This document shows, one piece after another, positions 61,760 to 62,465 of a DNA stretch of 64,000 nt; the stretch's first letter is position 1; each line of letters begins with the position of its first letter. Source of the stretch: Escherichia coli (GTDB lineage: Bacteria; Pseudomonadota; Gammaproteobacteria; Enterobacterales; Enterobacteriaceae); the NCBI RefSeq assembly GCF_003334355.1, contig NZ_QOWP01000013.1; one strand, 5' to 3'. The notes beneath the pieces are model-generated. The model did not search any database. It saw only the letters and a program-made list of their open reading frames with translations, and was not told where the DNA came from. The position numbers and the translations under genes are program-made.

Positions 61760-61953
61760 TTATCGTTATGATCTACAAAAGCCACCAGCATAACAAATCC
61801 GTGGTCGGTGGCAAAAAAAGCAGATTTCGCTTATTAAAACTGCATATTGATTGAAGTTTGAATAAACGCGCGATTTTTTAAAAAAGTTTGTTGACCTCAG
61901 GTCATGATTTCCCTAAATTAGCGCCCGTTCCAGCAAGACAGGAACGACAATTT

Positions 61954-62041
61954 GGTGAGGTGTCCGAGTGGCTGAAGGAGCACGCCTGGAAAGTGTGTAT
62001 ACGGCAACGTATCGGGGGTTCGAATCCCCCCCTCACCGCCA
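61954..62041 (+). tRNA. serX: tRNA-Ser (long variable arm, anticodon GGA)
   Basis: 88-nt sequence GGTGAGGTGTCCGAGTGGCTGAAGGAGCACGCCTGGAAAGTGTGTATACGGCAACGTATCGGGGGTTCGAATCCCCCCCTCACCGCCA with 7-bp acceptor stem, T-arm GGGGG-TTCGAATC-CCCCC and encoded CCA. Confidence 0.95.
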
Positions 62042-62465
62042 TATTTAAAAAAAAGCCCGTACGAAAGTACGGGCTTTTTTTTCGTATATTGCACACACCG
62101 GGGGGGATGAGAAGCCCCGACCGGGGGTCGACAACTGGCGACAGCCAGTTGGACAGACCGTGAACGCAGTGAGCGGGCTGCCCGCAGGGCGAGCGAAGCG
62201 AGTCAATCCCCCCCTCACCGCCATATTTAAAGAAGAGCTCGTACGAAAGTACGGGCTTTTTTTTCGTATATTGCACACACCGGGGGGATGAGAAGCCCCG
62301 ACCGGGGTTCGACAACTGGCGACAGCCAGTTGGACAGACCGTGAACGCAGTGAGCGGGCTGCCCGCAGGGCGAGCGAAGCGAGTCAATCCCCCCCTCACC
62401 GCCATATTTAAAGAAGAGCTCGTACGAAAGTACGGGCTTTTTTTTCGTATATTGCACACACCGGG
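62023..62465 (+). repeat. Tandem direct repeat (~181-182 bp period, about 2.4 copies), each copy beginning with the last 19 nt of tRNA-Ser
   Basis: aatccccccctcaccgcca occurs at 62023, 62205 and 62386; each is followed by a near-identical terminator hairpin and structured spacer; copies differ by a few substitutions and a 1-nt G-run length change. Confidence 0.9.
62047..62082 (+). terminator. Symmetric rho-independent terminator after serX
   Basis: aaaaaaaa-gcccgtac-gaaa-gtacgggc-tttttttt perfect hairpin with A/T runs on both sides. Confidence 0.85.

Follow-up and report, generated by a model that had tools for sequence, protein, structure and literature searches.

The tandem repeats behind serX in Escherichia coli: a known tRNA-linked repeat array with conserved terminators and a probable structured RNA

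The DNA behind the serine tRNA gene serX of Escherichia coli repeats the end of that gene several times, and these repeats raise a plain question: are they traces of site-specific integration, signals for ending or processing the tRNA transcript, or parts of a structured RNA? The original prediction, made from the sequence, had listed these roles side by side. In this study, we examined the locus in a window of 64,000 nucleotides of E. coli DNA (the whole stretch analysed, from contig NZ_QOWP01000013.1). We believe, with good confidence, that the serX array is a tRNA-linked repeat (TLR) array of the RtT-like RNA family, in which a terminator is combined with a structured RNA that is made by read-through and matured in the manner of a tRNA, and whose size is changed by recombination.

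Layout of the serX array and its relatives

The tRNA-Ser(GGA) gene was found by ARAGORN and matched the Rfam tRNA model with 53.8 bits, and identical loci in RefSeq carry the same serX annotation. On its 3' side, Tandem Repeats Finder reported an array at 62023-62465, exactly where the original prediction had placed it, with a period of 181, 2.4 copies, 98% matches and a score of 849. The array consists of two full units of 182 and 181 bp and an 80-bp partial unit, each of which opens with the 19-nt tRNA 3' end. This 19-mer (AATCCCCCCCTCACCGCCA) lies at 62023, 62205 and 62386, spaced by 182 and 181 nt, and the window holds no further copy beyond these three. The array ends 80 nt past the start of the last 19-mer, at CACACACCGGG (62465), and the same 80-nt end closes the array in all E. 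coli alleles examined, including those with zero full units. The plan of the array is the tRNA, then n units of a 19-nt tRNA 3' end, an AU-rich spacer, an intrinsic terminator and a structured body of about 120 nt, and then a last 19-mer with its terminator (Table 1).

Table 1. Features of the serX locus, in positions of the window
Feature	Position	Strand	Remarks
Putative promoter-like site 5' of serX	61891..61919	+	TTGACC, 17-nt spacer, TAAATT; consensus scan alone, 9/12 matches
serX tRNA-Ser(GGA) gene	61954..62041	+	last 19 nt (62023-62041) are the first copy of the repeated 3' end
Unit 1 AU-rich spacer and intrinsic terminator T1	62042..62082	+	A8; hairpin 62055-62074; T8 62075-62082
Unit 1 TLR/RtT-like RNA body	62083..62223	+	ends in 19-mer copy 2 (62205-62223)
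Unit 1 body, P1	62100-62108		paired with 62206-62214
Unit 1 body, motif GATGAGAAG	62106-62114
Unit 1 body, P3	62132-62151
Unit 1 body, P4	62154-62180
Unit 1 body, P5	62181-62189
Unit 1 body, GCGAAGC	62193-62199
Unit 2 spacer and terminator T2	62224..62264	+	hairpin 62237-62256 with one G-U pair; T8 62257-62264
Unit 2 TLR/RtT-like RNA body	62265..62404	+	ends in 19-mer copy 3 (62386-62404)
Unit 2 body, P1 5' strand	62281-62289
Unit 2 body, P3	62313-62332
Unit 2 body, P4	62335-62361
Unit 2 body, GCGAAGC	62374-62380
Terminal partial unit	62405..62465	+	spacer; T3 hairpin 62418-62437; T8 62438-62445; direct-repeat family D2
Last 20 nt of the partial unit	62446-62465		up to CACACACCGGG, where repeat homology stops

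Rfam model RF00391 (RtT) matched unit 2 at 62268-62404 with 46.3 bits and unit 1 at 62086-62223 with 43.2 bits, the gathering score being 45, and the serX units of K-12 scored 46.3, 46.3 and 36.1 bits. Our search of 5,426 complete E. coli genomes showed that RefSeq annotates an 'RtT sRNA' at this locus, between ghrA and ycdU. TLRs are defined by 18-19 bp of identity to the 3' end of the upstream tRNA or rRNA (PMC8144298). The units studied here start at the serX 3' end on the same + strand, their 19-mers at 62205 and 62386 agree with the 18 or 19 nt found at all K-12 TLR loci, and the common core reads GCCCGCAGGGCGAGCGAAGCGAGTC in serX and GCCCGTAGGGCGAGCGAAGCGAGTC in lysW and lysY. Such repeats were first described at tyrT in 1978 (Egan and Landy 1978, as cited in PMC8144298). 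Those of serX are catalogued as rsX1-4 (EcoGene) among the 22 TLRs of K-12 in PMC8144298, where Rudd 1999 is cited; they are also among the 22 in its supplement, in which strain TSS107 has had all 22 TLRs removed, rsX1-4 included. The sole functional claim for an RtT RNA (rtT) was retracted (PMC8144298). The serX array is a real, conserved and already known TLR/RtT array with nothing categorically new in it, and since the locus had been catalogued, our finding is a rediscovery.

The units were compared with the K-12 loci tyrT/tyrV, the lysT operon, lysV, the arg operon, proK, serW and rrfB. In every tRNA-linked case, the identity to the tRNA end starts at a fixed point in the T loop, between TTCG and AATCC. 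The core common to the tRNA-linked units begins with the hairpin AACGTTGC-nnnn-GCAACG, or CAACTGGC-gaca-GCCAGTTG at serX, and continues with GCCCG.AGGGCG, AGCGAAGCGAGT, (A)ATCC and the tRNA end; the rrnB unit has the same core. The part GCCCG.AGGGCGAGCGAAGCGAGT joins the serX units with the Tyr, Lys, Arg and Pro repeats, and the motif GGATGAGAA is also found in Ser, Tyr and Pro units. Judged by sequence, the serX units have homologues in the RtT repeats of tyrT as well as in those that follow Lys, Arg and Pro tRNA genes and 5S rRNA. The resemblance to the 178-bp tyrT repeats, which had been noted at first sight, is thus true homology, as the Rfam matches and the common core indicate.

The tyrT-tyrV RtT repeats (rtT/RttR RNA, RF00391; Egan and Landy 1978 and Bosl and Kersten 1991, as cited in PMC8144298) follow a class II tRNA gene in tandem, as those of serX do, with units of about 180 bp, and in both each unit ends in the last 19 nt of its tRNA. 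Both have GGATGAGAA, a T-arm-like segment, a central hairpin, GCCCG.AGGGCG and a closing helix with a tRNA-derived strand. However, tyrT units score 133-138 bits against RF00391 and serX units 36-46 bits, each serX unit has its own intrinsic terminator whereas tyrT units have none, and serX units, whose RNA product is a prediction, preserve the long-range helix of the Rfam model poorly (marked non-canonical). The 5S-linked RrA, RrB and RrF (rrnA, rrnB, rrnD) follow the serX plan of a stable RNA gene, terminator 1, body and terminator 2, their body ends in an 18-nt copy of the gene 3' end, and they have the core AACGTTGC....GCAACGGCCCG.AGGG in common with serX. Unlike serX, they are single units behind 5S rRNA, and they bind Hfq and CsrA; as CsrA binders, tRNA-linked TLRs have scores below 0.01 (PMC8144298). 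Within the lysT-valT and argV-argQ operons, and also behind lysV and proK, lie TLRs (Rudd 1999, as cited in PMC8144298) that resemble the serX units in their 18-19 nt of tRNA identity, the common core and a tRNA-matched closing helix. The internal Lys and Arg units differ in being short (98-135 nt) and in lacking the GATGAGAA/T-arm-like module and a terminator, the last because they are co-transcribed spacers.

At lysQ, lysV and proK a TLR body stands between two copies of one terminator behind the tRNA, and rrfB has the order 5S, T1, body and T2, so that serX is the multi-copy version of a terminator-TLR-terminator design. At proK there is one full unit, a second copy of its terminator and a longer partial second unit (through GGAGGTTCGACTCGA), which makes it a 1.4-copy array like serX. 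The serW gene of K-12 has the same spacer and a related terminator (GCTCGTACGAAAGTGCGAGC) with no repeat body. Among the tRNAs of the K-12 tRNA operons, the T-arm GGTTCGAATCC was seen in every one that bears a TLR, and valT, valZ, valU, valX and valY in the same operons have GGTTCGATCCC and no repeat. Several other genera have units at more than one tRNA-Ser(GGA) locus. Enterobacter cloacae (L024) and Klebsiella spallanzanii (L045) carry two complete tRNA-Ser(GGA) genes on the same strand, 3.2-3.4 kb apart, each with its own unit.

Attachment sites and copy number

Genomic islands do use this tRNA end, and the array could accordingly be seen as a stack of attachment sites or of miniature integrase-mobilised elements (CIME-like accretion), in which each unit was left by site-specific integration into the serX 3' end and the copies are extra attB sites. 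The 14-bp core CCCCCTCACCGCCA in every copy is the published attB of serX/serW islands and the direct repeat that flanks OI-43/48 and SRL-PAI (PMC3064760). Islands lie at serX in many genomes, and their distal junction is the core followed by repeat units (loci L007 and L094). Identity begins in the T loop, as at many tRNA attachment sites; the P4-type integrase sites of SRL-PAI and OI-43/48 at serW and serX duplicate the same 14 bp and also show identity from the T loop.

In contrast to such P4-type sites, the repeat copies were not used for integration in the genomes examined, and neither phages nor plasmids carry the units. A synthetic junction of repeat body, 19-mer and island left end was searched in 5,426 E. 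coli genomes, and for the one island type tested the left end was joined to a repeat copy in none of them; it always abuts the tRNA itself. The repeat unit was absent from 50,697 phage genomes, and the plasmid matches proved to be mislabelled chromosomes or chromosome fragments, with no genuine plasmid among them. Moreover, homologous units are located inside tRNA operons and behind 5S rRNA, at places where islands do not integrate, and the compensatory changes described below point to selection on a fold. We consider it very unlikely that the array arose by integration, and neither the junction search for that island type nor the phage search supports the idea of a decayed array of attachment sites. 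Some loci that looked like islands inside arrays (L024, L045, L082, L089) were really second tRNA-Ser genes with their own units, or N scaffold gaps.

The number of units in E. coli was followed with a query for both unique flanks, which lay within reach of each other in 2,055 of the 5,426 genomes; the rest carry a deletion or an island at serX. Among 23 contiguous loci sampled systematically, the insert sizes corresponded to 0 full units in five loci, 1 in four, 2 in seven, 3 in one and 4 in six. The largest array seen, in strain 0H23 (NZ_CP081684.1, L093 3724-4900), has six full units and the terminal partial unit. One copy in this strain has a C8 run, not C7, and an IS5 element and a truncated pgaA lie beyond the array. 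The number of full units, which the original prediction had proposed to compare among genomes, thus ranges from 0 to 6 across E. coli, so it is not invariant.

Three full serX units and four 19-mers were found in the MG1655 reference (NC_000913.3 1095800-1098300), and four units and five 19-mers in a second MG1655 assembly (NZ_OZ465113.1); the locus spans of DHB4 and C600 fit four. Either the reference collapsed a unit, or laboratory stocks differ. In E. coli 1919D62 (L005 4455-4830), the array is cut in unit 2 after CAACTGGCGACAG and joined to a GGDEF gene beside pgaA, and ycdU and the neighbouring genes have been lost. The age and wide spread of the unit make deletion between two 80-bp repeats the best reading of the alleles with zero full units. 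Such alleles are common (five of the 23 sampled loci), so any function of the array must be dispensable, and the array is dispensable in many natural strains.

Terminators, fold and selection

A terminator-like hairpin after each 19-mer copy had been predicted, and all three copies are indeed followed by a hairpin and a T8 run (Table 1). A consensus terminator scan did not list these + strand terminators; folding reveals them clearly. The unit 1 hairpin, GCCCGTAC-GAAA-GTACGGGC, stands between A8 and T8 and is perfect (inverted repeat I6, 100% complementary), and the hairpin and T-run of units 2 and 3 are one sequence with a single G-U pair. Each terminator has eight GC-rich stem pairs and T8, and the predicted fold extends to 16 pairs through the flanking A/T tracts. 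T1 folds with -23.2 kcal/mol (z -6.5) and T2 with -20.4 kcal/mol (z -6.4), both far below shuffles. The GC-rich hairpin and U tract kept throughout the family are those of an intrinsic (Rho-independent) terminator, and termination itself is predicted. The perfect terminator of unit 1 and the change common to units 2 and 3 had also been pointed out, and both are present; however, the form AAAGAAGAGCTCGTAC of units 2 and 3, which had been called diverged, occurs in every K-12 unit and is also the consensus sequence across 67 units drawn from many genera. Since its 'mismatch' is a G-U wobble and the family consensus, the perfect first terminator is the unusual variant of this strain.

The conservation of the unit was examined in one genome per species. 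A scan for GAGTNAATCCCCCCCTCACCGCCA gave 79 loci, with Ser-type units in about 22 genera of Enterobacteriaceae and Erwiniaceae, at 1-4 copies per locus and a spacing of 174-186 nt. An alignment of 65 distinct units and the 2 from the window (67 Ser-type units) had a mean column identity of 80%. Pairs were counted on a structure that we specified, with a shuffle control that ignores phylogeny. Changes on both sides were seen in 18 pairs, compared with 8.4 in shuffles (0 of 500 shuffles were as high, phylogeny ignored), and when the 3' partners were slid by 1-3 columns only 3-9 pairs had both sides changed. Compensatory changes occur in 7 of the 8 pairs of P3, 5 of the 6 of P4 and 6 of the 8 of the terminator stem. 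RNAalifold independently recovered the terminator, P3 and P5, and the minimum free energy of the unit 1 body is -63.2 kcal/mol (z -2.66).

The hairpin caactggc-gaca-gccagttg, which had been seen in the sequence, is present twice as P3 and is kept by compensatory changes. The second proposed hairpin, gcggg-ctg-cccgc, is in the sequence as well but lacks conservation: across the 67 units, 60% of cells pair, no better than in shuffles, and the conserved pairings there are CAG.CCG/CGG.CTG and CCC/GGG instead. P1 and P2 showed no covariation within the Ser set; P1 is invariant there because the search pattern fixed the 3' end. RNAalifold also offered an alternative closing helix, GGATGAG:CTCACC, which is acceptor-stem-like and has only invariant columns. 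The element GCGAAGC (GCGNAGC across the family) is conserved in Ser, Lys, Arg and Pro units, and it matches a DNA sequence reported to form an unusually stable mini-hairpin. Compensatory changes in the terminator and two inner hairpins across about 22 genera indicate that selection acts on the fold of the transcribed strand. The suggestions of a structured RNA and of a terminator are thus borne out by covariation, for the terminator hairpin and the two inner hairpins.

These results bear on three other readings of the array. In the first, only the terminators matter, as a partly bidirectional stack that insulates serX from the convergent ycdU, and the bodies of about 120 nt are neutral passengers. 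In its favour, conservation and covariation are strongest in the terminator hairpin with its T-run, the A8-hairpin-T8 of unit 1 is perfect, and ycdU does converge on the array. However, covariation in the body hairpins P3 and P4 is as strong as in the terminator, the body is common to repeats in other genomic contexts, some of them in operons without a terminator, and the alleles with zero full units retain one terminator, which seems to suffice. We regard this explanation as quite unlikely.

In the second reading, to which we give hardly any credence, each unit encodes a small basic Tpr-like peptide from the conserved ATG of GGATGAGAA. The annotated tpr of K-12 (L002 1588-1677) does start at this ATG in a tyrT unit, and GGATGAGAA is nearly invariant, with GTG instead in 5 of 67 units. 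However, the frame that starts at the motif varies from 17 to 100 aa across the Ser units and is lost after about 11 codons, owing to 1-nt indels in the hairpin loops, so that the Ser units have no conserved reading frame of a tpr-like small protein. The variation is compensatory for stems and not synonymous, and there is no spacing for a ribosome-binding site. In the window, GGATGAGAA lies at 62106-62114 and 62287-62295, and the ATG at serX opens only an unconserved 18-codon ORF.

A recent neutral tandem duplication without any selected role is the third reading. Units within a strain are near identical (98%), and copy number varies freely, in K-12 stocks too, yet the unit occurs in about 22 genera, where its columns are on average 80% identical and its stems show compensatory changes. 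This wide conservation means that at least one unit is old and constrained, which refutes the reading for the unit itself, and that only the copy number looks neutral, so we find a purely neutral array extremely improbable. Mixed arrays were also observed: in Siccibacter colletis (L025 977-1518), P3/P4 of unit 3 are of the type seen in Franconibacter (L069), and in Intestinirhabdus alba (L087 953-1313), units 1 and 2 bear two different P4 types. Mixed sequence types inside one array show that arrays are not always simple local duplications.

The closing helix P1 is GGGGGGGAT:ATCCCCCCC in Ser units, and the Rfam RtT model (RF00391) already contains this helix. It pairs a 5' G-rich strand with a tRNA-derived 3' strand (ATCC with T-stem and acceptor bases), and the Rfam alignment has compensatory positions in P1 relative to the Tyr consensus. 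The helix reads GGGGGGGAT / ATCCCCCCC for Ser, GGGGAAGGAT / ATCCTTCCCC for Tyr, CGTGaAGGAT / ATCCTGCACG for Lys and CaGGGAGGAT / ATCCTCCCGG for Arg, and only GAGGAT / ATCCTC for Pro. Across these five tRNA types, with 5' strands that we picked at the homologous position, 87% of cells are paired, compared with 76% in shuffles (0 of 500 as high) and 40-57% when slid, and in a permutation test of the match between helix and tRNA 4 of 120 arrangements were as good. On this comparison of sequences, the 5' strand of the closing helix changes with the tRNA type (Lys, Arg, Ser, Tyr). In addition, the T-stem 5' strand and T-loop start of the cognate tRNA recur in Ser, Tyr and Pro units (GGGGTTCGA, AAGGTTCGA and GGAGGTTCGA, respectively) about 85 nt upstream of the 19-mer, at 62123-62132 and 62304-62313 in the window and also in the K-12 tyrT and proK units. 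Such a unit thus looks like the final third of the tRNA gene, its T loop interrupted by an insert of about 85 nt.

A read-through RNA and its meaning

How the structured RNA would be made can be outlined from its relatives. Transcripts that start at the serX promoter would reach the body only when they read through the terminator before it, as in the homologous rrnB T1-RrB-T2, where experiments show that RrB is expressed by T1 read-through and ends at RNase E-type sites (PMC8144298). The authors of that work proposed that the repeated 3' end directs RNase E-type cleavage. Each serX unit reproduces the tRNA 3' end together with its downstream cleavage context, which suggests that the tRNA 3'-end machinery releases the unit RNA: an RNase E cut after CCA and trimming by exonucleases would leave a discrete RNA that ends in CCA. 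Because a strong terminator (-20 to -23 kcal/mol) stands before each body, transcript levels may be very low; our literature search found no report of expression of the serX units. Slippage or unequal homologous recombination among the 181-bp units would alter the size of the array, and deletion between two 80-bp repeats would give the alleles with zero full units.

What such an RNA might do is a matter for speculation. We suppose, as an unlikely idea, that TLR RNAs are tRNA-specific mimics of the acceptor and T arm that act in trans as decoys or sensors for readers of the 3' half of the cognate tRNA, in a dose set by the copy number of the array. In such a mimic, the 5' strand could reproduce tRNA positions 5-7 and 49-53, and the T loop could be replaced or split by the conserved three-hairpin insert. 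The RNA could be made in proportion to terminator read-through, and its targets could be, for example, maturation RNases, the CCA enzyme, a synthetase or a toxin. If this were true, the copy number (0-6 at serX) would tune the dose.

For annotators, the serX array carries a caution: its repeated tRNA 3' ends are not scars of island integration. The TLR family has been known from the stable-RNA operons of E. coli for more than 40 years, with one claimed function retracted. Its wide conservation and compensatory changes indicate that selection keeps at least one unit at each locus as a folded RNA. The question of its role is sharpened by the closing helix that matches the tRNA type and by the generality of the terminator-body-terminator design, and the natural series of 0-6 copies at serX is ready material for dosage effects.
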